Shown: in pieces, positions 1 through 26,429 of the stretch
Layout of the letters: every line of letters starts with the position of its first letter
Numbering within the stretch: position 1 is the stretch's first letter
IMG/VR virus record: IMGVR_UViG_3300045988_150395
Coordinates: 1 to 26,613 of that record
Length of the DNA stretch: 26,613 nt
Reading direction: 5' to 3' (one strand)
From: a virus
Translations under genes and position numbers: made by a program
The notes under the pieces: generated by a model
The model's database searches: none
What the model was told of the DNA's origin: nothing
The model's input: the letters and a program-made list of their open reading frames with translations, nothing else

Positions 1-45
1 AACTTAAATCAACTACTATTAACGGAAACCTATCCGTTACTGGGA
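1..45 (+). repeat. R element copy 1 (45 bp, aacttaaatcaactactattaacggaaacctatccgttactggga); encodes (Q)LKSTTINGNLSVTG
   Basis: Identical 45-mer occurs five times (1, 383, 823, 1205, 1645). Confidence 0.85.
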
Positions 46-389
46 ATATCTCATGTCCTGGATTAAAAATATCTAATTTCGGGACAATGACTTATAATTA
101 TAGCGGATTAAGTCCACTAGGAGGAAATTATTGTTATTGGAATGATTATTTTTTATATGCACATATAGCATTTCAATTTCCAAGCAATATTCCAAGTGGA
201 ACTTTATTAATGACATTTCCAACTTCAACAACTGCAAAGCTAGATAATGTAGGATTTTGCGGTTTTAATAACTCAACAGGAATACAACACATTGTAGCAT
301 TTAATTTTATTGGAAATAAAATGTCTATGAATACAAATAGACCTCAAGCAGGTAACTTTAGTTTTGATATAATTTTACCTAGAACTTAA
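1..389 (+). CDS. Cassette A1, 5'-truncated by the window edge (codon start at nt 3). Constant leader ..LKSTTINGNLSVTG plus variant-A C-terminal domain (NISCPGLKISNFGTMTYNYSGLSPLGGNYCYWNDY...FSFDIILPRT); hypothetical variable protein
   Basis: In-frame continuation of the same reading frame as the 816..1211 copy. Stop TAA at 387-389 lies inside R copy 2. Confidence 0.6.
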   Translation, partial: LKSTTINGNLSVTGNISCPGLKISNFGTMTYNYSGLSPLGGNYCYWNDYFLYAHIAFQFPSNIPSGTLLMTFPTSTTAKLDNVGFCGFNNSTGIQHIVAFNFIGNKMSMNTNRPQAGNFSFDIILPRT

Positions 390-427
390 ATCAACTACTA
401 TTAACGGAAACCTATCCGTTACTGGGA
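383..427 (+). repeat. R element copy 2; contains the TAA stop of cassette A1 in frame 0 and the LKSTTINGNLSVTG codons in frame +1
   Basis: Exact 45-bp match to copy 1, then diverges (g428 vs a46). Confidence 0.85.
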
Positions 428-774
428 GTTTTACTAAAAACGACACATGGTCGGGTCATATTAATTGTAACTCTGGTTTTACAGTTATAGTTAATTTTTT
501 TAAAATAGGTAATTTAGCTATCGGAACTTTTGATTTTACTACTCAAAGTGGAAAAACTATTCCAGCCTGGACTTGGACTAGACTTTGCCCTGCGGGGACT
601 ATACCAGTTAACTTTAGACCTAAATCAAGTAATAAAGATATGACTATTTCTTTACAAGAAGCAGGAGCAGGTAAAGTTGGGTTTAATATTGATGGAAGTA
701 TTGATATAAACTGCTATAAAGCATTGGGAGCAAAATATGAAGGCGGCATGCAAGTCATTTATATGGTAGAGTGA
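385..774 (+). other. Silent cassette B1. Intact 129-codon ORF in the +1 frame relative to A1, beginning with the R-encoded LKSTTINGNLSVTG then SFTKNDTWSGHINCNSGF...GGMQVIYMVE, stop TGA 772-774. No start codon or RBS of its own
   Basis: Open frame from R copy 2 to the TGA. Clear paralog (shared motifs IPAWTWT, CPAG.IP, FRP, ISLQ, GAG, DGSI, QVIY) of the expressed cassette C. Confidence 0.55.
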
Positions 775-815
775 GATATTCCAATTTTTTAGAGATAAAA
801 AGGAGGAAAATTTAC

Positions 816-1211
816 ATGGCGCAACTTAAATCAACTACTATTAACGGAAACCTATCCGTTACTGGGAATATCTCATGTCCTGGATTAAAAATATCTAATT
901 TCGGGACAATGACTTATAATTATAGCGGATTAAGTCCACTAGGAGGAAATTATTGTTATTGGAATGATTATTTTTTATATGCACATATAGCATTTCAATT
1001 TCCAAGCAATATTCCAAGTGGAACTTTATTAATGACATTTCCAACTTCAACAACTGCAAAGCTAGATAATGTAGGATTTTGCGGTTTTAATAACTCAACA
1101 GGAATACAACACATTGTAGCATTTAATTTTATTGGAAATAAAATGTCTATGAATACAAATAGACCTCAAGCAGGTAACTTTAGTTTTGATATAATTTTAC
1201 CTAGAACTTAA
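816..1211 (+). CDS. Cassette A2, 131 aa: MAQLKSTTINGNLSVTG plus variant-A domain; hypothetical variable small protein
   Basis: RBS aaaggagg 8 nt upstream of ATG 816. Identical to A1. The ORF-track start at 771 is a GTG overlapping the B1 stop, so ATG 816 is preferred. Confidence 0.7.
   Translation: MAQLKSTTINGNLSVTGNISCPGLKISNFGTMTYNYSGLSPLGGNYCYWNDYFLYAHIAFQFPSNIPSGTLLMTFPTSTTAKLDNVGFCGFNNSTGIQHIVAFNFIGNKMSMNTNRPQAGNFSFDIILPRT
823..867 (+). repeat. R element copy 3 (directly after ATG GCG C of cassette A2)
   Basis: Exact 45-bp match. Confidence 0.85.
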
Positions 1212-1249
1212 ATCAACTACTATTAACGGAAACCTATCCGTTACTGGGA
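1205..1249 (+). repeat. R element copy 4 (stop of A2 / head of silent cassette B2)
   Basis: Exact 45-bp match. Confidence 0.85.
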
Positions 1250-1596
1250 GTTTTACTAAAAACGACACATGGTCGGGTCATATTAATTGTAACTCTGGTT
1301 TTACAGTTATAGTTAATTTTTTTAAAATAGGTAATTTAGCTATCGGAACTTTTGATTTTACTACTCAAAGTGGAAAAACTATTCCAGCCTGGACTTGGAC
1401 TAGACTTTGCCCTGCGGGGACTATACCAGTTAACTTTAGACCTAAATCAAGTAATAAAGATATGACTATTTCTTTACAAGAAGCAGGAGCAGGTAAAGTT
1501 GGGTTTAATATTGATGGAAGTATTGATATAAACTGCTATAAAGCATTGGGAGCAAAATATGAAGGCGGCATGCAAGTCATTTATATGGTAGAGTGA
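1207..1596 (+). other. Silent cassette B2 (identical to B1); +1 frame, no start codon, stop TGA 1594-1596
   Basis: Exact copy of B1 within the 822-bp duplication. Confidence 0.55.
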
Positions 1597-1637
1597 GATA
1601 TTCCAATTTTTTAGAGATAAAAAGGAGGAAAATTTAC

Positions 1638-2033
1638 ATGGCGCAACTTAAATCAACTACTATTAACGGAAACCTATCCGTTACTGGGAGTTTTAATAGG
1701 AATTATAGTTGGAGTGGCAATTTTACTTGTAATTCTGGTTATCGTGCATCTGGTTATTTATGGAGAATGGGTAATTTAGTTATTGGTACTTTTACTTTTG
1801 CTACAAATAGTGGGATAAGTATACCAGCTTGGACTTGGACTACAATTTGTCCTGCTGGAGCTATTCCAGCTAGCTTTAGGCCAAATGTGAATAGAGGTCA
1901 ATATATTTCTTTACAAGGTGTTGGAGCTGGACAGATAAATTTTAATGCAGATGGAAGTATTAGTATATGTTGTTATGGAACTTTTGGAGGTCCTTGGGCA
2001 GGAGGATTACAAGTTATTTATTTTGTAGATTAA
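1638..2033 (+). CDS. Cassette C, 131 aa: MAQLKSTTINGNLSVTG plus variant-C domain (SFNRNYSWSGNFTCNSGYRASG...GLQVIYFVD); paralog of the silent B cassettes
   Basis: RBS aaaggagg plus ATG 1638. Roughly 45% identity to the B cassette by eye, with conserved Cys/Trp positions. Confidence 0.7.
   Translation: MAQLKSTTINGNLSVTGSFNRNYSWSGNFTCNSGYRASGYLWRMGNLVIGTFTFATNSGISIPAWTWTTICPAGAIPASFRPNVNRGQYISLQGVGAGQINFNADGSISICCYGTFGGPWAGGLQVIYFVD
1645..1689 (+). repeat. R element copy 5 (head of cassette C)
   Basis: Exact 45-bp match; shares a further 6 nt with the B-type copies before diverging. Confidence 0.85.
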
Positions 2034-2122
2034 AATTAAAAATCTCAATATTTAGAATAAAAAACTAAATGGACTTTTTTCTTATTTTATTGTAATATAT
2101 AAATAAAAAGGAGATACCAAAA

Positions 2123-2401
2123 GTGAGATTACATGCAGGAGATGTAGTTAAACATTTTAAACGAGAAACTCTTTCACAAGAAGAACAGGAAAACACTAAG
2201 AAATATTTATATATAATTTATGATATAGCGGAACACACTGAAACTGGTGAAAAATTAGTAATATATCATAGCTTATATGAACCAATTAAATTATATGCTC
2301 GTCCAATAGATATGTTTATGAGTAGGGTGGATAAAGAAAAATATCCAAACATAAAACAAGAATATAGATTTGAGCTTTTGGAGGATAAGAAAGATGAATA
2401 G
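2123..2401 (+). CDS. DUF1653-like small protein (GTG start)
   Basis: RBS aaaggaga 7 nt upstream of GTG 2123. Sequence pattern HFKRE..YLYIIYDIAEHTETGEKLVIYHSLY..LYARP..MF resembles the DUF1653 family (recalled from memory, not searched). Confidence 0.5.
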   Translation: MRLHAGDVVKHFKRETLSQEEQENTKKYLYIIYDIAEHTETGEKLVIYHSLYEPIKLYARPIDMFMSRVDKEKYPNIKQEYRFELLEDKKDE

Positions 2402-2792
2402 CCTAGATATTTTAAAACAAATTTTTGATGTATGTATTGTACCTTTAATTGCAATTTTAACTTCTTATTTAGTTAGTTACATTCAAGTCCAGAAGGAGCA
2501 ACTAAAGAAAAAGACAGATAATGAGCTATTAAATAAATACATTGATATGGCAGCTAATACTATTGCGGATTGTGTTACTACAACTAATCAGACATATGTA
2601 GAAACTTTGAAAAAGGAAGGTAAATTTGACGAAGAAGCACAGAAAGTTGCTTTCCAGAAAACTTTAAATGCGGTTTTAGCTTTGCTTACTAAAGAAGCTA
2701 AAGATTATTTAACTGAGGCTTATGGAGATTTGAATTTATATTTAACTAATAAAATCGAGTCTACAGTTAATGAGAAGAAAACTTCTAAATAA
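2394..2792 (+). CDS. Hypothetical membrane protein with one N-terminal TM helix followed by a charged coiled-coil region
   Basis: ATG 2394 with GGAGGA 8 nt upstream (track start 2370 is a TTG). Hydrophobic segment ILKQIFDVCIVPLIAILTSYLVSYI. Confidence 0.5.
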   Translation: MNSLDILKQIFDVCIVPLIAILTSYLVSYIQVQKEQLKKKTDNELLNKYIDMAANTIADCVTTTNQTYVETLKKEGKFDEEAQKVAFQKTLNAVLALLTKEAKDYLTEAYGDLNLYLTNKIESTVNEKKTSK

Positions 2793-2803
2793 TATGTTAC
2801 CAA

Positions 2804-2843
2804 AGGGGTAGGTTCTTGAAAAGAGAACCTACCCCTTATTTTG
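2804..2843 (+). terminator. Rho-independent terminator
   Basis: 12-bp perfect stem ggggtaggttct/agaacctacccc with a 7-nt loop, followed by ttatttt. Confidence 0.8.
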
Positions 2844-2937
2844 CGTTATACCAAAATTTTTTTAGAAAAATATTTTGGACTATAGGAGAAAACTGGGCGA
2901 ATGAGATAAAAGATTACCAAAAAATTTTCATATACTT

Positions 2938-3402
2938 ATGAAAGGAAGAGGAGAAAAAGTTAATAGAAAGAAGGTAAGTAAAATGTATCCTAATTACAAT
3001 TATTACCCACCTCGCCAACAGCAACAAATGCAACCGCAACAACCTCAAATTCCTCCTTTTCTTAAAGGTAGACCAGTATCTTCATTAGAAGAGGTTAGGG
3101 CTATTCCAATAGACTTTGATGGTTCTGTTTTTTACTTCCCAGATATAGCCAATAGAAAAATATATACAAAACAAATTAATTTAGATGGGACAGCATTAAT
3201 AAACATGTATGAATTTAAGCCTATTCCAGTAGCACAAGAAACTACTTCTAATGCAAATACAGATACTTTTGTAACTAGAGAGGAATTTGACGAAACAATG
3301 TCAAGAATTAAAGAAATGTTTGCGGCGATGCCGGCTCAAAGTCCGCAACCGGCGCAAAAAGAAGTAACAACTAAGAAACCCGCAGAAATGCCAAAATTTT
3401 AA
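2938..3402 (+). CDS. Hypothetical Q/P-rich protein (YPPRQQQQMQPQQPQIPP low-complexity N-terminus); alternative start ATG 2983
   Basis: Long ORF, first gene after the terminator. Start ambiguous because RBS is weak for both ATGs. Confidence 0.45.
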   Translation: MKGRGEKVNRKKVSKMYPNYNYYPPRQQQQMQPQQPQIPPFLKGRPVSSLEEVRAIPIDFDGSVFYFPDIANRKIYTKQINLDGTALINMYEFKPIPVAQETTSNANTDTFVTREEFDETMSRIKEMFAAMPAQSPQPAQKEVTTKKPAEMPKF

Positions 3403-3414
3403 GGAGGAAACCGC

Positions 3415-3660
3415 ATGAATAACATAAATCCTATGCAATTAATTCAGATGATTAAAGGCGGTCAAAATCCGCAACAACTTATGATGAGTATACTTGAACA
3501 ACAAATGCAAAATACTCCAATGGGAGCTAATCTATTGTCTTTAGCAAAGCAGAATAGAAGTGCAGATATTGAACAAATCGCCCGCAATATATGTAAACAA
3601 AGCGGAAAAGATTTTGATAAGGAATTTAATGCTTTCAAGCAAATGCTTGGGCTTAAATAA
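3415..3660 (+). CDS. Hypothetical small Q/M-rich protein (81 aa)
   Basis: Perfect RBS aaggagg 6 nt upstream of ATG. Confidence 0.55.
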   Translation: MNNINPMQLIQMIKGGQNPQQLMMSILEQQMQNTPMGANLLSLAKQNRSADIEQIARNICKQSGKDFDKEFNAFKQMLGLK

Positions 3661-3684
3661 TAAATTTTAAAGGAGGACATTAAT

Positions 3685-4455
3685 ATGTTCAATAATGCAG
3701 CTAGTGGCTATAGTTTAGCCGATATCGCAGCCGCTACAGGTTCTACCCGCAATGATAATGGTTGGGGCTTTGGTGGCGATGGAGGAGCTTGGTGGATTAT
3801 TATACTTTTCCTTTTCTGTTTCGCAGGATGGGGAGGAAATGGAAATGGTCTCTTTGGAGGCGGTTCCACAGGCTCTGGAATTACTGATGGTTATATTTTA
3901 ACATCAGATTTTGCCAACGTAGAAAGAAAAATTGATGCCGTAAATAATGGTATTTGTGATGGATTTTACGCCATGAATACAGGCATGCTGAATGGATTTG
4001 CTGGTATTAATAATAATATTACACAACAAACTATTGCAGATATGCAGAATACTAATGCTATTAATGCAGGTATTACTAATTTGGGTACTCAGTTACAGCA
4101 ATGTTGCTGCCAGACAAGATACGAAGACGCTCAGAATTTTGCTCAATTAAATTATAATTTAGCAGACCAAGAATGTTCAACTCGTAGAGCTGTTACTGAT
4201 GCGACAAGAGATTTAATGGAAAATCAAAACGCTAATACTAGAAGTGTATTAAGCGCAATTCAAGAAATGCAAACACAGGCACTGCATGATAAGATTACTG
4301 AACTTACAGCTGTTAATTCTGACCTTAAATTCCAAGCTAGTCAAGCAGCTCAGAACAGCTATCTCATCAATGCACTTAATCCTTCACCTGTACCTGCATA
4401 CACAGTTCCTAATCCTTATGCAGGTTATAGAAACTGTGGATGTTCAACTTTATGA
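3685..4455 (+). CDS. Hypothetical protein: Gly/Trp-rich N-terminus with one TM helix (WWIIILFLFCFAGWGG), N/Q-rich coiled-coil-like middle with a QQCCCQ motif, C-terminal CGCSTL
   Basis: Perfect RBS aaaggagga; 256-aa ORF. Confidence 0.6.
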   Translation: MFNNAASGYSLADIAAATGSTRNDNGWGFGGDGGAWWIIILFLFCFAGWGGNGNGLFGGGSTGSGITDGYILTSDFANVERKIDAVNNGICDGFYAMNTGMLNGFAGINNNITQQTIADMQNTNAINAGITNLGTQLQQCCCQTRYEDAQNFAQLNYNLADQECSTRRAVTDATRDLMENQNANTRSVLSAIQEMQTQALHDKITELTAVNSDLKFQASQAAQNSYLINALNPSPVPAYTVPNPYAGYRNCGCSTL

Positions 4456-4524
4456 TTAATTAGTTTGACTACTAGGGAGCCTGCCAGCTCCCTAGATAGT
4501 TAAATTCCTGAAAGGAGACTATTT

Positions 4525-4947
4525 ATGGAACTAACTAGTAATGTAGTACAAACCGTAAACGCAAATGATAATGTTGTATTCATTACAACAAGAATCCCTG
4601 GTAACTGTTCAGTTATTCATACCGAGGGAAGTGGAAATATTAAAATGAGAGGCTTGTCTAATAATCAATGCCGCTCAAGATTCAAAGTAACTTTCACTGG
4701 TAATATTGCAGTTCCAACTGGTGGTACCGCAGGAGCTATCTCATTAACTATTACTATAGATGGTGAGGCAGTTCGTACCGCGCAAATGATTGTAACACCT
4801 GCCGCAGTAGAGCAATATTTTAATGTAGCTTCATGTGTATACATTGACGTACCTACTGGATGCTGCTCAACCGCAGGAGTAACTAATACTTCAACACAAA
4901 CGATTAACGTTCAAAATGCTAATCTTATAGTAGAAAGGGTGGCGTAA
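4525..4947 (+). CDS. Hypothetical small Cys-containing beta-rich protein (140 aa)
   Basis: RBS gaaaggaga; T/V/N-rich composition typical of beta-sandwich proteins. Confidence 0.55.
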   Translation: MELTSNVVQTVNANDNVVFITTRIPGNCSVIHTEGSGNIKMRGLSNNQCRSRFKVTFTGNIAVPTGGTAGAISLTITIDGEAVRTAQMIVTPAAVEQYFNVASCVYIDVPTGCCSTAGVTNTSTQTINVQNANLIVERVA

Positions 4948-4948
4948 T

Positions 4949-5485
4949 ATGCATAGACTTTATGATATGAAAAACTGTTTAATTAGTGCTGCCCAATCTC
5001 AAATGGGAAATCTCCAAGACTGCGATGCTGGAGAGCTTGGCGAAGTAATTGATATGATAAAAGACCTTGAAGAAGCAATTTATTATTGTACAATTACAAA
5101 AGCTATGAATGAAAAAGAAGAAAATAATTCTTCTCAATATCGTATGTATTACAGGGAAAGAGGAGGACAAAATTATGATAATTCCTCTTCATATATTGAC
5201 TATCCTAGAATTGATAAGTATAATGATAAAAGCAATGAACCTTATCATGAAAGAGAATTTCCTTTAGAGATGCGGGATGCGCGTGAGGGCCGTAGTCCAG
5301 TACGTCGCCGCATGTATATGGAATCTAAAGAACTCCACAAGGATAAAGTAACCGCAATGAAAGAACTTGAAGAATATATGCAAGAATTAAGTTCTGACAT
5401 TTGTGAAATGATTGAAGACGCTTCTCCAGAAGAGAAACAATTACTTCAAAAGAAAATTATTGCTTTATCAAATAAAATACAATGA
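4949..5485 (+). CDS. Hypothetical acidic coiled-coil protein (178 aa)
   Basis: Start 2 nt after the previous stop; ATGA overlap with the next gene. Confidence 0.5.
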   Translation: MHRLYDMKNCLISAAQSQMGNLQDCDAGELGEVIDMIKDLEEAIYYCTITKAMNEKEENNSSQYRMYYRERGGQNYDNSSSYIDYPRIDKYNDKSNEPYHEREFPLEMRDAREGRSPVRRRMYMESKELHKDKVTAMKELEEYMQELSSDICEMIEDASPEEKQLLQKKIIALSNKIQ

Positions 5486-5799
5486 TTAAAATAAATGGAG
5501 AAACTTGGAGAATATTCCTAGTTTCTCCTAATCATCCAATTCTATATACTAATGGTTCTTATACACTTGGGGCTTGTGATAATGTTACTCATTCAATTTA
5601 TATTAATGAAAACCTTAATTCTCATAAAATGAAAAAGGTATTATGCCATGAGTTAACACATGCCGCAATGTTTAGTTATGATGTAGAATTAACATTGGAA
5701 CAAGAAGAACTATTAGCAGATTTACTTGCCACTTATGGACAAGAAATTGTTGATATGACAAATGAAATTTTTATTAAATTAAAAAGGAATATTTATTAG
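5482..5799 (+). CDS. Small putative zinc metallopeptidase-like protein (HExxH motif: CHELTHAAMF)
   Basis: ATGA-coupled ORF; single HELTH motif in a 105-aa protein. Confidence 0.5.
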   Translation: MIKINGETWRIFLVSPNHPILYTNGSYTLGACDNVTHSIYINENLNSHKMKKVLCHELTHAAMFSYDVELTLEQEELLADLLATYGQEIVDMTNEIFIKLKRNIY

Positions 5800-5828
5800 C
5801 ATGATTAATAAATATTCCTTTTTTTTAT
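5785..5828. terminator. Bidirectional rho-independent terminator at the convergence point of the plus and minus modules
   Basis: 14-bp stem aggaatatttatta/taataaatattcct, followed by T-runs on both strands (tttttttt on plus; tttttaattt on minus). Overlaps the TAG of 5482..5799 and abuts the TAA of 5829..6257. Confidence 0.7.
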
Positions 5829-6257
5829 TTAATCAGTAATATGTTTTGCTTTTTGTACAACTAAAGCAAATAAACTGTCACCATTATGGTTACCTTTTAA
5901 ACCATTATAAGCATCATGGTCTTCAATACACTGTTGGTATTCTTCTAATGTTATTTCATGGTCTTCAGCTAATAATGCTTGACATTCAGCTATGAATTCT
6001 TTCTTTTGCATTGAAAGAATTCCTTTTCTAAGAGCATCTAATTGTTCTTGTAACTTCTGGTCACCATCTCTTGATTCTTTTTCTATTCCATCATATCGAG
6101 AAAACATATCATTTTTAAGATTTTCATAAAATCTAGCACGTTCAGCATTTTGTTCGTCTTCTTTCATTTTCATATATTTTTTGAAAAAGTATCCACCGCC
6201 TGCAACTATTAAGCCAAAACCAAATTCAACCCAATATTTAATTATAAAGTCTAACAT
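5829..6257 (-). CDS. Hypothetical membrane protein (N-terminal TM, then charged coiled coil), last gene of the minus-strand operon
   Basis: RBS AGGAGG (revcomp of 6262-6270) upstream of ATG 6257. Confidence 0.55.
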   Translation of the reverse strand: MLDFIIKYWVEFGFGLIVAGGGYFFKKYMKMKEDEQNAERARFYENLKNDMFSRYDGIEKESRDGDQKLQEQLDALRKGILSMQKKEFIAECQALLAEDHEITLEEYQQCIEDHDAYNGLKGNHNGDSLFALVVQKAKHITD

Positions 6258-6318: not shown

Positions 6319-6807
6319 TTAAGACCAATCAAACATTTCTGTTTCTTCTTTTACAAAATAATGAGTTCCAATACATATTGCATCAGCTTCATCTTCTGTA
6401 CATTTCAATCCATAAGTAGATTGAACATATGCTTGCGCGTTCTTCTTTTGTTCTGCCCTAACTTTACCCTTAATCTGTAAAGTAGACCGCCATTGTACTG
6501 CTAGAACTGAACTATTAGGCATTTTAGTTTCTGTAAAAAATTCACATAAAACACCAATAACTTCCGCAAGTTTTTTAAATGTTAATACATTATTTCCCGC
6601 ACCATTTTTTAATTGTATATCTTCAAAGATAACTTCATCTACTTCATATTTTTCAATTAATTCCTTAACCTTATTCTTAATATTCATTAATCTTTCACCA
6701 AAATCTTTATCGGTAAAAGTAAAATGTCCATAATCAAGAAGTTTGCCGTCTTCAAAAACGGCAAACCCTGATATTCGACTGCTTTGGTCTAAAGCTAAAA
6801 GTTTCAT
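6319..6807 (-). CDS. ruvC: RuvC-like Holliday junction resolvase (phage type)
   Basis: N-terminal LLALDQSSRISGFAVF (RuvC motif LGIDPGSRxTGYAV), mid-protein acidic EVDEVIFED, C-terminal EADAICIGTHY (RuvC DAxDALAxA..H). Confidence 0.65.
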   Translation of the reverse strand: MKLLALDQSSRISGFAVFEDGKLLDYGHFTFTDKDFGERLMNIKNKVKELIEKYEVDEVIFEDIQLKNGAGNNVLTFKKLAEVIGVLCEFFTETKMPNSSVLAVQWRSTLQIKGKVRAEQKKNAQAYVQSTYGLKCTEDEADAICIGTHYFVKEETEMFDWS

Positions 6808-18554: not shown

Positions 18555-20348
18555 TTAAAAATAATATTCAGTGCTTCCAACTATTTGATAGTCTTCAATT
18601 AAAATTTGAGGAGTAATTTCTCCACCCCAAGCATTTTTTGCACATTTACCAACCAAATCAATTTTTACACTTCCGTTTTCAGAACGTAAAGCTTCATACT
18701 CTTCTTCAGAAGCTTTAAATTTCATTATGTCAACTCCGCAAGGCAATTTAATTCTAATCGTTGGATTTTTGTCTTTTGATAAAAGCTGAATGTTATCTTT
18801 AGTAACATTTAATCCTTTAATACCAACATATGCTCTATCAAAATCTTGTCCCCACAAATCATTAAATCCAGAAATATCTAAGATTATTTGTTTATCTCGT
18901 GGAGTTAGGTTCCTCTTAAATAAATAATCAACCTTATAAATTGGGTCACTAGGATATTGAGAAAGTAATTTATCTGATTGTTCAATAAATGTATCTATTT
19001 TATTAGCATCAAGTGAACATCCTGCTGCATTTTGATGACCTTGAACCCAATTAACACCATCACATTGCTCAAGTGCTGTCTTAAAATCCATAAGTCCGTT
19101 TTTAGTATATCCTCTCATAGAACCTTCATAAGTACCATGGTCAGTTCTAGTAAGTACCATACAAGGTCTTTGATATTTAGCCATATGTTTATTTGCTACT
19201 AAACCTCTTATGGTTCCTTCTACTTCTTTACTTTCCAGAAGAAAAGTAAGTATTTTATGGTCAAGAAGGTTCTCTGCCTTAATCTTTTTATCAAGAAATA
19301 ACATCGCATTATCTTCTAGGCGAGTTTGTCTATTTTTAATATTTCCTATTACTCGTACAGCTTGCAAGACTAAATCTTCTTGTTTACCAGTCTCTTTTCC
19401 TCTTTTAATTTCTGGAATTTTTTTATGTGCCTTATATTCAAGCATTGAATCAAATATTAAGTACTTTTCATCTAATTCACCAGTTCTTGTTGTAGCATTT
19501 ACAAAAGGAACAATGAAAAATGCTGCCCCAATATCTGTACAAGCTTGAGTTTCATATGCACTAGCATAATCTGTTTTTCCTAATGGAAAACCATTTTTAT
19601 CTAGCATATATTCAATAAAAGGATTATGGATATTATCTTCATTTAAACCTTTCATAATAATATGCTTAGTTTCAAATGAATGCAAACTCATCATATCACC
19701 AATATTAGCTAAAGCTACAAGGTCAATTAGCTGATTTGCATAATCAGTATTTAAAATAGAATCAATATATCTACAGAATTGCCAAGTAACACCAGCTCCG
19801 CAGAATTCCTTATTTGGATAATCAGAAAGCTGATTATTAATTATAATAGCATCATCACTGATTTTGTCAGCCAAATGATGATCTAAGCAAACAACTTCTA
19901 TACCATTATCCTTTAATATCTTATGATATTCATAATCATTACTTCCTGCATCTGGTAATAATACTAATTTATATTCTGATTTTGCAAATTTATCATAACA
20001 ATCTTCTAGTCCATGCTGTTTGCCCGAATGCATAAAATAATCTAAATTATTTTCAACCCAAGTAGGAAAAAAATAATGAAGATAATTAATAAGAATCGCC
20101 GCACTGCAATATCCATCACAATCACAATCTACTACGATTACAGCTTTTTGCTTATTAGCTACTGTTGTAATTATGTAAGATAAAGCTTGATATAAATTAT
20201 TTTCACCTAAAAGAGTAAAATCATTAATATCATCATCTGTTGTATTAAGATAATGATAAAACTCTTCTGGCGGAATTCCTCGATTTAATAAAATCTGTTC
20301 AATAGTAGAATATTGTTCTTGTACACTATTTAATAATTCTAATCTCAT
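18555..20348 (-). CDS. recJ: RecJ-like ssDNA exonuclease (DHH phosphoesterase superfamily)
   Basis: DHH motifs I VIVVDCDCDGYCSAAIL, II LVLLPDAGSND, III VVCLDHHL; 597 aa. Confidence 0.75.
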   Translation of the reverse strand: MRLELLNSVQEQYSTIEQILLNRGIPPEEFYHYLNTTDDDINDFTLLGENNLYQALSYIITTVANKQKAVIVVDCDCDGYCSAAILINYLHYFFPTWVENNLDYFMHSGKQHGLEDCYDKFAKSEYKLVLLPDAGSNDYEYHKILKDNGIEVVCLDHHLADKISDDAIIINNQLSDYPNKEFCGAGVTWQFCRYIDSILNTDYANQLIDLVALANIGDMMSLHSFETKHIIMKGLNEDNIHNPFIEYMLDKNGFPLGKTDYASAYETQACTDIGAAFFIVPFVNATTRTGELDEKYLIFDSMLEYKAHKKIPEIKRGKETGKQEDLVLQAVRVIGNIKNRQTRLEDNAMLFLDKKIKAENLLDHKILTFLLESKEVEGTIRGLVANKHMAKYQRPCMVLTRTDHGTYEGSMRGYTKNGLMDFKTALEQCDGVNWVQGHQNAAGCSLDANKIDTFIEQSDKLLSQYPSDPIYKVDYLFKRNLTPRDKQIILDISGFNDLWGQDFDRAYVGIKGLNVTKDNIQLLSKDKNPTIRIKLPCGVDIMKFKASEEEYEALRSENGSVKIDLVGKCAKNAWGGEITPQILIEDYQIVGSTEYYF

Positions 20349-22097: not shown

Positions 22098-24731
22098 TTA
22101 TTCAAATGTCATCATTCTACTATCGTCAGTAACGTTAATAGAGACATTATTTATTTCTTTAATATCATAATTATAAGTTGTACAAAACATAGGTTCAATT
22201 CTACAAGTTCCTAAATCTGCTTTACACCATAAGTAAACTCCTTTATATTGTCCTCGTCTATTCTTATATATTGATAATTTGATTGTTGGTGTATCAAAAG
22301 CATTTGTTGCTAAGATACTTTGTAATGCTTCTAAGTCTTTAGGTGTTACGCTAAGTAAGATACTACCATAATCAATTTTATCTGCGATTGATTTTGCACC
22401 ACGAAGTAAATTCTGATCAGGTGTTTCTGAATCCTTATAAGTCCCATTTAGCTGAGTTGCAGACATAATAAAAATACCATACTGATTACATAAATCTTTT
22501 AAACGATTAGATAACATAAAAAGAATATTATCCTCTCGAAGTTTTACACCGCCGGAACGTTTAGTTATCTCTTCAAGAATTTTCAGACTGGTATGTATGT
22601 AGTCATGAAATACGTATAAAACTCCATGGTCACGAATATTTCTCTTTATCGTGTTCTCTATATCCTGTAAATTAAAGTCCGGCAATTCTTCTACATATAA
22701 AGGAGCTTTGGAAAGAATTTCTGCTGCTTTAAGCACCCTATCCTCTTCATCTCCTTCATATTTACCATTTAAGATATGCTCTTCATTTACATTTGAAAGA
22801 AAAGCTAACATCATTGTTTGAATTTCTTCCAATTCCTGCTCAGTCGTAATAAACAGGGTAGGATTACAAATTCCTGTTCCTATCCATCCAAAAGTCTCAT
22901 CATATATATGACTACAAGCTATATAACAAGCATCAGCAATCATAGAACGAGTGTTGTGAGTTACAATGAAATCATTCATTAAGAATAAATGAGAATCATT
23001 ATCTACTGTAAAACAAGTCATAGGAACTTTTTTATCAGTTTTTTCTATGTTTACAATAGCTATATGGTCTTTAAACTCTTGACGTTTATTAGAATTAGCA
23101 TAAGCTATTGCTCTATCTTTTTTTCTTTGTAAATGAAAACATTTAGGTTTAATTTCTTTTTTACACTGAATTTGTATTTTGTAGCATTCTCCAGTAGTAT
23201 ATTTATCTTCTCTTTTATCTATAAGATAATTAGCAATAAAACCTAAGCTTCTACATAAATAAATAAAATCATCTCTTAACTGCGGGCTGACTGTTGTAAA
23301 ACTCATTCTGCCTTTTGTATCTATACCACCATCTGTATCCATAAGTCCTTGGAGTAATTCAAACCTCTGCTCTATACTTCCATGAAGATAAGTTTTCGGA
23401 ATAAATTTATCTTCAGATTTAGCCATAAGAAGTTCTGGACATTCTTTCAAAAATTCCTCTACCCAAATATTGTGCTTTGGATTATTTATATTTTTAAATA
23501 CCCAATTATAATTCATATGAGTATAGCTATGCGGATAAAATTCATTTCCCAATAGCTTAGAAATATAATTAGGAATTTCTTCATCTTCGGAAGAAAAATT
23601 TAAACTCTTATTAGAAGGAATATATCTAAAACTACCATCTCCTAAAAAAGCTCCCATTATATATGGATGTAAATAATATTCTTTTTCAGGAAATTCAACA
23701 GGTTCATTTAATTTGATATGAAATCTATAACCTTTATTTGAAGAATCCTTTAAACCATTTTTTAACTTTAAGGCTCTATTATAAATAGTTTCAATATCTT
23801 CTACACGATAAGCTTTTCCCCTATGAGATTCATATCTATATTCCCATAAATGTTCTCCACAACATTCTGCGACAATACCGTTTGAAAAAGTAACTTTCCA
23901 AATCTCTTTATCTTCTGGTTGAGGATAAATTCTCAAAACTTTAGTTGGTTTACCATCTTGTCCAAATAAATAATCACCAACTTTAATTTCATCCACTCTC
24001 TTATCACCATTAGGAGTAGGAATAATTGTATAATTAGGAATAGCCTTACCAATACCAGTTGCCGCAGACCGCAAATAAAACTTTTTTAATCTCGCGCCAC
24101 GAGTAACTGTATTAATAAGAGGTCCATATAATGGAACACCCACTTCTGGATATTGTTTAAATTTTTCAATTAAATCAAAAACACCTTCGCCTGCTTGTTC
24201 ACTAGCATTTTGAACATCATCAACATATTGCATTCTGATAAGTTCAATTTTATCATTCACTCTACTGGCTATGTCAGTTAAAGAACAATTATCAAGTAAC
24301 TCTTCTTGTTCTTGCTTCTTTTTCATATCTAATATATTATCTGGGTCATATATATCAGATACATCAATTCCAAAATTATCAAATGCTCTTAATAGAGTCA
24401 TTTTTTTAAGTCGATTATAATAATAATCAAAAGCTAAAGGGGAAGCACCATCTGAGGCTTTAATTAACCACTCTTCACCTTTTTGCTGTTTATATAAAGC
24501 TCCACTGGTTGGATGTGTTTCAAAAAAATCAGATACAGTTTTTAAATTTACCTCTTTTGCGCCTTGCTCATGAATTTTATATAAAGCCCCAAAAACTATT
24601 TTATGAAATTCATTAGAAAAATCTTCTTCATTTATTGTATATCTATCTTTTTCATCCAATAAAGATAAATTTTTAAATACATTTCCTATAACTTGAACTA
24701 TAGCCGAAACATCTACATATTTACTTGCCAT
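22098..24731 (-). CDS. dnaB: DnaB-family replicative helicase precursor containing an intein. Start ATG 24731 preferred; the ATG at 24749 is part of the RBS GAGGAGG
   Basis: DnaB N-terminal domain; split P-loop SAATGIGK / TRSMIADA; C-terminal motifs IFIMSATQLN, RGAKSIADKIDYGSIL, IYKNRRGQYKG. 883-aa ORF is too long for DnaB without an insertion. Confidence 0.85.
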   Translation of the reverse strand: MASKYVDVSAIVQVIGNVFKNLSLLDEKDRYTINEEDFSNEFHKIVFGALYKIHEQGAKEVNLKTVSDFFETHPTSGALYKQQKGEEWLIKASDGASPLAFDYYYNRLKKMTLLRAFDNFGIDVSDIYDPDNILDMKKKQEQEELLDNCSLTDIASRVNDKIELIRMQYVDDVQNASEQAGEGVFDLIEKFKQYPEVGVPLYGPLINTVTRGARLKKFYLRSAATGIGKAIPNYTIIPTPNGDKRVDEIKVGDYLFGQDGKPTKVLRIYPQPEDKEIWKVTFSNGIVAECCGEHLWEYRYESHRGKAYRVEDIETIYNRALKLKNGLKDSSNKGYRFHIKLNEPVEFPEKEYYLHPYIMGAFLGDGSFRYIPSNKSLNFSSEDEEIPNYISKLLGNEFYPHSYTHMNYNWVFKNINNPKHNIWVEEFLKECPELLMAKSEDKFIPKTYLHGSIEQRFELLQGLMDTDGGIDTKGRMSFTTVSPQLRDDFIYLCRSLGFIANYLIDKREDKYTTGECYKIQIQCKKEIKPKCFHLQRKKDRAIAYANSNKRQEFKDHIAIVNIEKTDKKVPMTCFTVDNDSHLFLMNDFIVTHNTRSMIADACYIACSHIYDETFGWIGTGICNPTLFITTEQELEEIQTMMLAFLSNVNEEHILNGKYEGDEEDRVLKAAEILSKAPLYVEELPDFNLQDIENTIKRNIRDHGVLYVFHDYIHTSLKILEEITKRSGGVKLREDNILFMLSNRLKDLCNQYGIFIMSATQLNGTYKDSETPDQNLLRGAKSIADKIDYGSILLSVTPKDLEALQSILATNAFDTPTIKLSIYKNRRGQYKGVYLWCKADLGTCRIEPMFCTTYNYDIKEINNVSINVTDDSRMMTFE
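22953..24044 (-). mobile_element. Intein (364 aa) with LAGLIDADG homing endonuclease, inserted in the DnaB P-loop between GK and T. Begins with Ala, ends THN, +1 residue Thr
   Basis: Block A AIPNYTIIPTPNGDKRVDEIKVGDYL; block B CGEHLW; LAGLIDADG motifs YIMGAFLGDGS and LLQGLMDTDGG; block F VPMTCFTVDND; block G FIVTHN followed by T. Extein junction restores GIGK|TRS. Confidence 0.75.
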
Positions 24732-25339: not shown

Positions 25340-26299
25340 TTACAGCAAATCTTCTTTAATTTCAGAAACAATTAAATAAATAATCTCTGCTTGCTCTCTC
25401 GTAGCATCAGATACTTTCTTTCCTTTTCCTAGGTATTTATCTACAATTTCTGTAATTTTTTCGCTGTTTTTTGTATCTCTCTGCATCAGCTCTCCAACTA
25501 CAGTCTGAAATTCTGCCATAAGGGCATCAAAATCATAAGTTGGTGCTTCTGTTTTCTCCATTTTCTCTTCTGTCACAAATTTATTATCATGCTCTGCGGC
25601 TTCTTTATCAATAGCTGCATGAATGGTATCAACAAGAGCATTATAATTCATTTCAATACAATCAGGAATATATTTAAAACGACAACCGCACTCAATAAAT
25701 CCTGTTCTATCCCTTAAAACAAGAATAGAATTTTCACTACCATTCTGTTTTGCATATCCATAAATATCAGCCATACCACCAATAATCTCTCTTGTGGAAT
25801 TGGAAAGTGCCGGACGAATATTTGTTACATTACCATTGTCATCTTTTGCTTCCTTATCATGTCCAAGAAAGAAAACTGCATAGCCAAGCTGTGTAAGTCC
25901 TCTAAATACTTCATTAAATTCATCTTTAAACTTAGACCATCCTTTTCCATAACCAAGATCTCCAAGCTCTTCAATTCCATTTTGCTGACAAATATATTTT
26001 TTACATTTATCTGCGGCAACATCAATAGTATCAACTACAACTGCTTTATAAACCTCTTTTACTTCTGGCTTTTTAAGCTCTCTATAAACCTGTTTCATTT
26101 CACCCCAAGTTGTAATATCCTGAGCCATTACACCAGGAAGAGCATTATATCCTGCTTCAAAAGCTAAAAGTAAAGCACCTTCCATCTGAGTTGCTAAAGT
26201 AGTTTTTCCAGTCTTATATCCGCCATAAAGATAAGTTATATACCCACTGAGGTCTTTACTAACTTTATGTGGTTGAATTCCTAATAAATTAATTCCCAT
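25340..26299 (-). CDS. Sak4-like / AAA_24-family RecA-fold ATPase (candidate recombination protein). Start ATG 26299; the track TTG at 26317 is part of the RBS
   Basis: Walker A GGYKTGKTTLA, Walker B VVVDTIDV, family-typical GYGKGW; RBS GAGGGAG. Confidence 0.6.
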   Translation of the reverse strand: MGINLLGIQPHKVSKDLSGYITYLYGGYKTGKTTLATQMEGALLLAFEAGYNALPGVMAQDITTWGEMKQVYRELKKPEVKEVYKAVVVDTIDVAADKCKKYICQQNGIEELGDLGYGKGWSKFKDEFNEVFRGLTQLGYAVFFLGHDKEAKDDNGNVTNIRPALSNSTREIIGGMADIYGYAKQNGSENSILVLRDRTGFIECGCRFKYIPDCIEMNYNALVDTIHAAIDKEAAEHDNKFVTEEKMEKTEAPTYDFDALMAEFQTVVGELMQRDTKNSEKITEIVDKYLGKGKKVSDATREQAEIIYLIVSEIKEDLL

Positions 26300-26429
26300 T
26301 CTTTTTATCTCCCTCAATTATATATGCTACTTTATCTATTAATTTTTTCAATATCAATAAAATTTTTATCGACATAAAAATCTTTCATTATTTTAATATC
26401 TTTTTCTTTTAAAATACCACAGTCATTAA

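Follow-up and report, generated by a model that had tools for sequence, protein, structure and literature searches.

Start-less, probably receptor-binding cassettes in a human-gut phage and their likely exchange at a 45-nt repeat

Why does a phage carry gene bodies without a start codon, and how could such bodies come to be translated? This question is raised by a stretch of viral DNA of 26,613 nt (IMG/VR record IMGVR_UViG_3300045988_150395, positions 1 to 26,613; hereafter the window, meaning the whole stretch). Its first 2,033 nt hold an array of bodies of three kinds (A, B and C), each copy preceded by the same 45-nt repeat, R, and most of them start-less. We consider it likely that this locus archives start-less receptor-binding heads and that homologous duplication and deletion from one R copy to another rotate them into a translation start.

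The array and its states in related phages

Repeat R (AACTTAAATCAACTACTATTAACGGAAACCTATCCGTTACTGGGA) is present in five exact copies, all on the plus strand, and the first base of the window is the first base of R (Table 1). None of 100 dinucleotide-preserving shuffles contained such copies. With ATG-GCG-C on its 5′ side, R gives the leader MAQLKSTTINGNLSVTG, which is followed by a body of ~115 residues. An initial annotation, made from the sequence alone, had correctly described the five copies, the constant leader, the two B copies as open frames without a start codon, and the paralogy of B and C (59% amino acid identity; 67.5% nucleotide identity in the body). It had also stated that each R precedes a different body and that a ribosome-binding site (RBS) and ATG belong to three of them (A, A and C). 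We find instead that positions 1–822 are identical to 823–1644, i.e. an exact 822-bp tandem duplication of a unit composed of R-A (382 nt) and R-B with the intergenic region (440 nt), and that only two of the five units, the second A and C, have an RBS and ATG. With slashes between units and lower-case letters for silent cassettes, the array order in the window is a/b/ATG-A/b/ATG-C. The stop codon of A (387–389 and 1209–1211) lies inside the following R, in a different frame, as a result of a lineage-specific 10-nt deletion; relatives carry CCTAGATAAAAAATT directly before R.

No inverted copy of R occurs on either strand of the window, a repeat scan reported no hairpin-forming inverted repeat in or beside R, no Rfam family matched within 1–3000, and the array scan gave no excess of promoter-like sites. 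The only terminator-like matches within the array are two weak ones on the minus strand (561–582 and 1383–1404).

Three states of this locus are found among related human-gut phages, which are contigs and scaffolds from metagenome assemblies, mostly of 102–108 kb (labelled L0xx). The ground state, a/b/ATG-C, is that of L001, L002–5, L009, L011, L013, L014 and L026. Here, a gene of 303–310 aa ends in ...TAT TAA TT and is followed at once by R-A, then by R-B and finally by the intergenic RBS-ATG-R-C; a TAA in the leader frame stands directly 5′ of R-A, which has no RBS, R-B is start-less, and only C is translatable. L008 is without B (a/ATG-C). The duplicated state, a/b/ATG-A/b/ATG-C, is shared by the window and L028 (178,502 nt), which is 100% identical to window positions 1–2600 and gives the part upstream of them, i.e. 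the order 310-aa gene/a/b/ATG-A/b/ATG-C. In L028 the first A comes directly after the stop of the 310-aa gene (GAATATTAATT abutting R), with the leader-frame TAA immediately before it. Because of this upstream context, the first A of the window is taken to be silent, and intergenic-ATG-R-A is the novel junction here. The switched state, a/b'/ATG-A/c, is that of L027 (181,750 nt), which equals the window minus 1205–1644, i.e. one 440-nt R-to-R unit, so that C is start-less behind A. L001, from the same study series, has the same C allele in the ground state. Taken together, L001, L028 with the window, and L027 place the ground, duplicated and switched states within near-identical strains.

The silent B of L027 (9660–9960) differs at 31 positions from that of the window (477–771), with flanking A, R and intergenic sequence identical. 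Replacement or conversion seems to have affected this silent cassette alone.

Do the start-less cassettes need any change at the DNA level to be expressed? Frameshifting, read-through or reinitiation from the upstream gene could in principle express them as they stand, given that the cassettes share a single transcription unit in which no terminator-like site is met until 2803 and that B is in the +1 frame relative to A. However, a leader-frame TAA is found directly 5′ of R at the junction between the 30x-aa gene and a, and at the a/b junction of most relatives. Moreover, the body is not preceded by any in-frame ATG, GTG or TTG that has an RBS, no slippery motif is present, and the DNA-level states account for expression without recoding. 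We regard such recoding as highly implausible.

Proposed exchange between copies of R

In the mechanism that we propose, each product would consist of the 17-residue constant N-terminal leader and a head of ~115 residues, and the locus would have very few translation starts, each with an intergenic RBS followed by ATG-GCG-C. Spare heads would be kept as start-less cassettes that are transcribed but not translatable and that all open with the same 45-nt R. If R copies on sister or concatemeric genomes recombined homologously, the head behind the start would change: (i) when the expressed R crosses over unequally with a silent R upstream of it, the result would be a tandem duplication in which a second start precedes the silent head (the state of the window); (ii) a later R-to-R deletion would yield the switched state a/b/ATG-A/c; and (iii) a further deletion would restore the ground state a/b/ATG-C. 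A cassette upstream of the start would be activated by duplication, with its donor copy retained and both heads then made, and a cassette downstream of the start would be re-activated by deletion. The long repeats made by duplication would allow easy reversion. The initial annotation had proposed one expressed locus with orphan cassettes and a short constant leader, which is supported by the rearrangements and the varying cassette content. It had further named receptor binding as one possible role. Activation by tandem duplication and then deletion is a route that it had not foreseen.

At every novel junction, R is the only repeated sequence. The products match an exchange of R with R between direct repeats, namely duplication of an 822-, 470- or 437-nt unit and deletion of one 440-nt unit, and the duplicated units start at a silent R and end at an expressed R. 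At position 20, the recombinant R has the expressed-site variant in L006 and the silent-site variant in L029, which suggests, from the sequences compared, that crossovers fell at different points inside R.

A dedicated recombinase of the integron, shufflon or invertase kind that acts on R would explain the precise junctions at R and the start-less cassettes, which are like integron cassettes or shufflon segments; the state of L027 could also have come from an excised 382-nt R-A circle that integrated at the expressed R. Yet every R copy is direct, Pfam and PHROGs reveal no recombinase or invertase among the window open reading frames (ORFs) of ≥80 aa (the window being part of a ~100-kb genome), and the R variants of L006 and L029 suggest differing crossover points. 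Site-specific recombination is, in our view, quite improbable. Because the position-20 variants differ, the window encodes no such enzyme and Sak4-, RecJ- and RuvC-like proteins are present, we infer that the exchange is homologous and phage-driven, not site-specific.

The R-to-R rearrangements for which the initial annotation had suggested looking are present in independent assemblies, as duplication and as deletion products. The loop-like contigs L006 (MEGAHIT k=141, 531 nt) and L007 (523 nt) run from the end of A through the intergenic region to ATG-R-A, with other A alleles, and L029 (k=141) reads ATG-R-A/intergenic/ATG-R-C/holin, with another A allele as well. Five distinct leader-plus-A sequences occur on 9 contigs in the 90% cluster around P0022. 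A further lineage has the ground state a/c'/ATG-R-D (L019), in which c' denotes a silent cassette of the C type and D a tail fibre of 355 aa that carries a Peptidase_S74 chaperone domain and is fused to the same leader (L019 and L024). L024 differs from L019 by an exact tandem duplication of 437 nt, through which c' comes to stand behind a start. Some genomes express the C-type cassette and others keep it silent (L019, L024 and L027). Homologous loci with different cassettes, which had also been anticipated, comprise a/b/C, a/C, a/c'/D and a/b/A/c. The k127 contig L023 breaks off exactly 127 nt past the first base of R, which is the signature of a graph branch at R.

Two other contigs were set aside. 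L020 starts with AATT followed by R-C and was not used as a deletion product; B and C share 49–51 nt there, and its start may be a graph effect. L012 (1–1870) joins a high-GC bacterial ruvB to the phage ATG-R-C and is probably a chimeric assembly.

Could the rearrangements have been made by the assemblers? If R collapsed in the assembly graph and the cassettes were misjoined, the duplication and the ATG-R-A junction would exist in no molecule. It is consistent with such an artefact that the window starts exactly at R, that related contigs (L023, L025 and L020) end at or near R, and that an exact 822-bp tandem repeat is not reliably countable from short reads, so that the copy number of the unit may be an assembler choice. 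However, R is only 45 nt long, and the k=141 (L006 and L029) and k=127 (L023) contigs, which need k-mers spanning R and unique flanks, still give ATG-R-A or a branch at R. The ATG-R-A junction is found in at least six samples, with two assemblers and three A alleles, and L027 and L028 traverse the whole array inside ~180-kb scaffolds. We find it very improbable that the junctions are artefacts of this kind.

Silent cassettes and their predicted products

Are the silent cassettes maintained? An open frame is kept by silent A in 9 of the 10 loci that were compared and by silent B in 6 of 6, against a fraction of ≤5e-5 of composition-matched shuffles. Pairwise ratios of non-synonymous to synonymous divergence (dN/dS) for silent A and B are 0.15–0.6, indistinguishable from those of the expressed C, with dS up to ~0.6. 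As read from these comparisons of sequence, purifying selection on the silent cassettes is shown. This bears on the alternative that A and B are decaying, start-less pseudogenes of an old paralog array, with R kept by descent and the duplications being neutral accidents. The numbers of open frames and the dN/dS equal to that of the expressed gene count against decay, as do the fact that the same C-type cassette is expressed or silent depending on the genome, and the duplicated copies, which are 100% identical and have several independent origins. We judge decay to be unlikely, though less firmly so for B.

Several points weigh against archiving and switching, and some of them also favour decay. 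Every line of evidence is taken from metagenome assemblies. An assembler that walked through mixed ground and switched genomes could have generated the duplicated state, and instead of being a switching device under selection, the states could be rare accidents of evolution. A is a putative receptor-binding head in view of its context and weak fold matches to its predicted model. Counted for decay as well are (i) the ground state, which predominates among relatives; (ii) ATG-R-B, which was not found, a search with the leader-plus-B protein giving only 114-aa internal-start calls; and (iii) the nonsense mutation in the silent A of L001 (a single C>A, equivalent to window position 1096), by which silent copies can decay. 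A premature stop of this kind would be expected if selection acts only intermittently.

R copies are identical within a genome, compared with 67.5% identity between the B and C bodies, and the chance of 45 matches at such a level of identity is ~2e-8. In L002 and L014, all three R copies carry the same two synonymous variants. Since distant phages retain the leader peptide with 10–12 nt differences, the within-genome identity of R is attributed to recombinational homogenisation and not to protein constraint alone.

In a different phage (L016, 6001–6848), two tandem leader genes with starts have identical 45-nt leader DNA and diverged bodies. These sequences suggest that leader homogenisation may also occur outside the cassette-bearing group.

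What would the cassettes encode? Pfam, PHROG and PDB sequence searches with A, B and C gave no match. The predicted fold of body C is that of a phage receptor-binding head domain, and its C-terminal beta-sandwich superposes on solved heads of receptor-binding proteins (RBPs) of the TP901-1 ORF49 and p2 ORF18 type. The model of body A has a predicted local distance difference test (pLDDT) score of 62 and weak fold matches, and leader residues 1–20 have low pLDDT in the monomer model. The structural comparison that the initial annotation had recommended therefore bears out a receptor-binding head for C, the model of A being too poor for a verdict on a common fold of A, B and C. A had been described as a more divergent paralog of B and C; profile–profile comparison by hhalign aligns it with them over the 20-residue leader only, and homology of A in sequence to B or C is rejected.

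Among the 21 database relatives of C, all 15 full-length ones begin with the same leader, the others being internal-start or truncated calls. In other phages the homologs of C occur singly or as two tandem genes, every one with a start of its own, and sit among tail-fibre genes (Phage_fiber_rpt, PTR, Gp10_C and DUF4376), upstream of lysin and holin. This is the gene position of an RBP, in the tail/baseplate module beside fibre genes and before the lysis genes. Each homolog is always preceded by a gene of 250–310 aa that ends in ...EFIEY and is homologous between phage groups (E 3e-11). From the shared leader, the tail-fibre context and the ...EFIEY neighbour, we infer that C and its 59%-identical paralog B each combine a docking leader with a receptor-binding head. 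The leader is presumably a docking peptide; being constant, it would attach every head at one and the same site, which may be on the ...EFIEY protein. The choice of head would then set host specificity, and switching would change host range.

In the 3′ third of C (1873–2025), ~22 substitutions relative to L001 and L027 are clustered within 150 nt; outside this region, the first two thirds of C, A and (in L001) all of B are identical. The cluster has the look of a mosaic patch or of hypervariable loops in the distal part of the head.

Known systems and genome surroundings

Phage host-range switches are known that work by site-specific inversion (Mu and P1), by diversity-generating retroelements (DGRs) or by slipped-strand tracts. 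How does the present locus compare with these and other variable systems? In Mu G/Gin, P1 C/Cin, p15B Min and the R64 pilV shufflon (Rci), as here, a constant 5′ part with the only start and start-less 3′ alternatives are joined at short in-frame repeats, and the outcome of inversion is altered receptor specificity. These systems have inverted repeats and an adjacent dedicated site-specific recombinase, and they invert DNA, whereas the present locus has direct repeats without inverted sites and undergoes tandem duplications and deletions. No serine invertase of the Gin/Cin/Min type and no Rci was found by Pfam or PHROGs among the window ORFs. An integron (IntI, attI and attC) does not fit either, there being no integrase in the window and R lying inside coding sequence.

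Neisseria pilE/pilS, Borrelia vlsE, Treponema tprK and Mycoplasma vsa/mgpB likewise have an archive of cassettes without promoter and start under selection and a single expression site with a constant N-terminus. At the present locus, too, the silent cassettes lack promoter, RBS and start and the expression site is separate from them, and in both cases the donor copy is retained after activation. In contrast to the non-reciprocal segmental gene conversion of those systems, which takes place in cellular genomes and serves immune evasion, the present system would use a single 5′ repeat to move whole heads by duplication and deletion of the reciprocal type; it belongs to a virus and presumably serves to change host recognition. 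Two-sided gene conversion is not indicated: the 5′ R is the only stretch with homology, and on the 3′ side A and C share none. The ‘genomic accordion’ of poxvirus K3L resembles the locus in its reversible tandem duplication by recombination, rapid adaptation and collapse via long repeats; however, it raises the dosage of one gene, whereas duplication here changes which body is translated.

The RBPs of lactococcal and Listeria siphophages (TP901-1 BppL/ORF49, p2 ORF18, bIL170 and PSA gp15) have the same head fold as C but no sequence similarity to A, B or C. Here the constant part spans just ~17 residues and lacks shoulder and neck domains, and, unlike in those phages, spare heads are stored start-less in the same genome.

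The present locus may go further and be a true expression-site system, in which a 17-residue universal docking leader with the only start takes archived start-less heads, even of unrelated folds and including the 355-aa fibre, by reversible rotation via the 45-nt in-frame repeat. We give this fuller reading about an even chance. In the literature we found no description of start-less RBP cassettes in phages, and the Zeta-crAss paper covers DGR cassettes only; this appears to be a so far undescribed means by which a phage alters its binding target. If true, it would add a further host-range route, in which start-less heads are activated by repeat-mediated duplication and deletion, and an antigenic-variation-like locus in a virus. 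It would allow population-level bet-hedging of host range without invertase, retroelement or mutator tract, supply a natural minimal 17-residue adaptor for head swapping that could be used in phage engineering, and explain the assembly breaks at this locus in these abundant gut phages. The hypothesis is directly testable with reads that are already public.

Taken jointly with the whole switching explanation, the locus is probably the RBP tip module of a ~100-kb human-gut siphovirus-like phage. Given the downstream DUF1653 gene, the holin and the first terminator-like hairpin 3′ of the array (2803–2837), the cassettes stand at the end of a late operon. The remainder of the window, which has a G+C content of 31%, is a minus-strand replication and nucleotide-metabolism module with genes for a PolIII-alpha-type polymerase, NrdD/NrdG, a Dda-like helicase, a RecJ-like exonuclease, a primase, a DnaB-like helicase, a Sak4-like annealing protein and a RuvC-like resolvase; the polymerase is closest to that of SPbeta-like Bacillus phages (37% identity).

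Table 1. Coordinates of the array, its expression sites and neighbouring genes in the window
Feature	Position	Strand	Remark
R copy 1	1..45	+	encodes LKSTTINGNLSVTG in the leader frame; the window begins exactly there
R copy 2	383..427	+	exact repeat
R copy 3	823..867	+	expression site; ATGGCGC directly 5′
R copy 4	1205..1249	+	exact repeat
R copy 5	1645..1689	+	expression site; ATGGCGC directly 5′
Tandem unit, copy 1 (R-A + R-B + intergenic RBS/ATG)	1..822	+	identical to 823–1644
Tandem unit, copy 2	823..1644	+	left junction intergenic-ATG/R/A is recombinant and absent from ground-state relatives
Silent cassette a (R + A body, no RBS/ATG)	3..389	+	adjoins the stop of the 310-aa gene in the identical L028
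Silent cassette b (R + B body, open, start-less)	385..774	+	stop TGA 772–774
Intergenic expression site	775..822	+	AGGAGG 801–806, ATG 816–818, GCG C into R
Translatable leader + A gene, 131 aa, putative alternative receptor-binding protein	816..1211	+	same protein on two long scaffolds
Silent cassette b, second copy	1207..1596	+	open, start-less
Intergenic expression site, second copy	1597..1644	+	AGGAGG 1623–1628, ATG 1638–1640
Translatable leader + C gene, 131 aa	1638..2033	+	predicted receptor-binding head-domain fold
DUF1653 gene	2123..2401	+	context; within the same late operon as the cassettes
Holin	2394..2792	+	phrog_13712, E 2e-35; context
RuvC-like Holliday junction resolvase	6319..6807	-	candidate phage recombination function (presumed link)
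RecJ-like exonuclease	18555..20348	-	candidate phage recombination function (presumed link)
Sak4-like single-strand annealing protein	25340..26317	-	candidate phage recombination function (presumed link)

The phage GenBank collection holds no close relative of window positions 1–6000, and an exact scan of IMG/VR for R gave no match. A degenerate scan for R returned two viral contigs and none in GTDB genomes, and hence no host clue. Relatives of the window assemble at ~102–108 kb or at 150–201 kb; the longer assemblies may be larger genomes, concatemers or prophages with host flanks. Two homing-endonuclease insertions in relatives are absent from the window: a GIY-YIG gene splits nrdD in L027 (17747–20396), and an HNH_3 gene lies inside the region of a 256-aa gene in L026 (7054–8626). 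An 883-aa protein encoded on the minus strand at 22098–24749 matches terminase-large-subunit-like and DnaB-like helicase PHROGs and is probably a fused ATPase/helicase of the replication module, not a terminase. The DUF1653 gene, intact in the window, is stop-truncated in L008 (6818–6946), L020 (~430–500) and L029 (~925–965).

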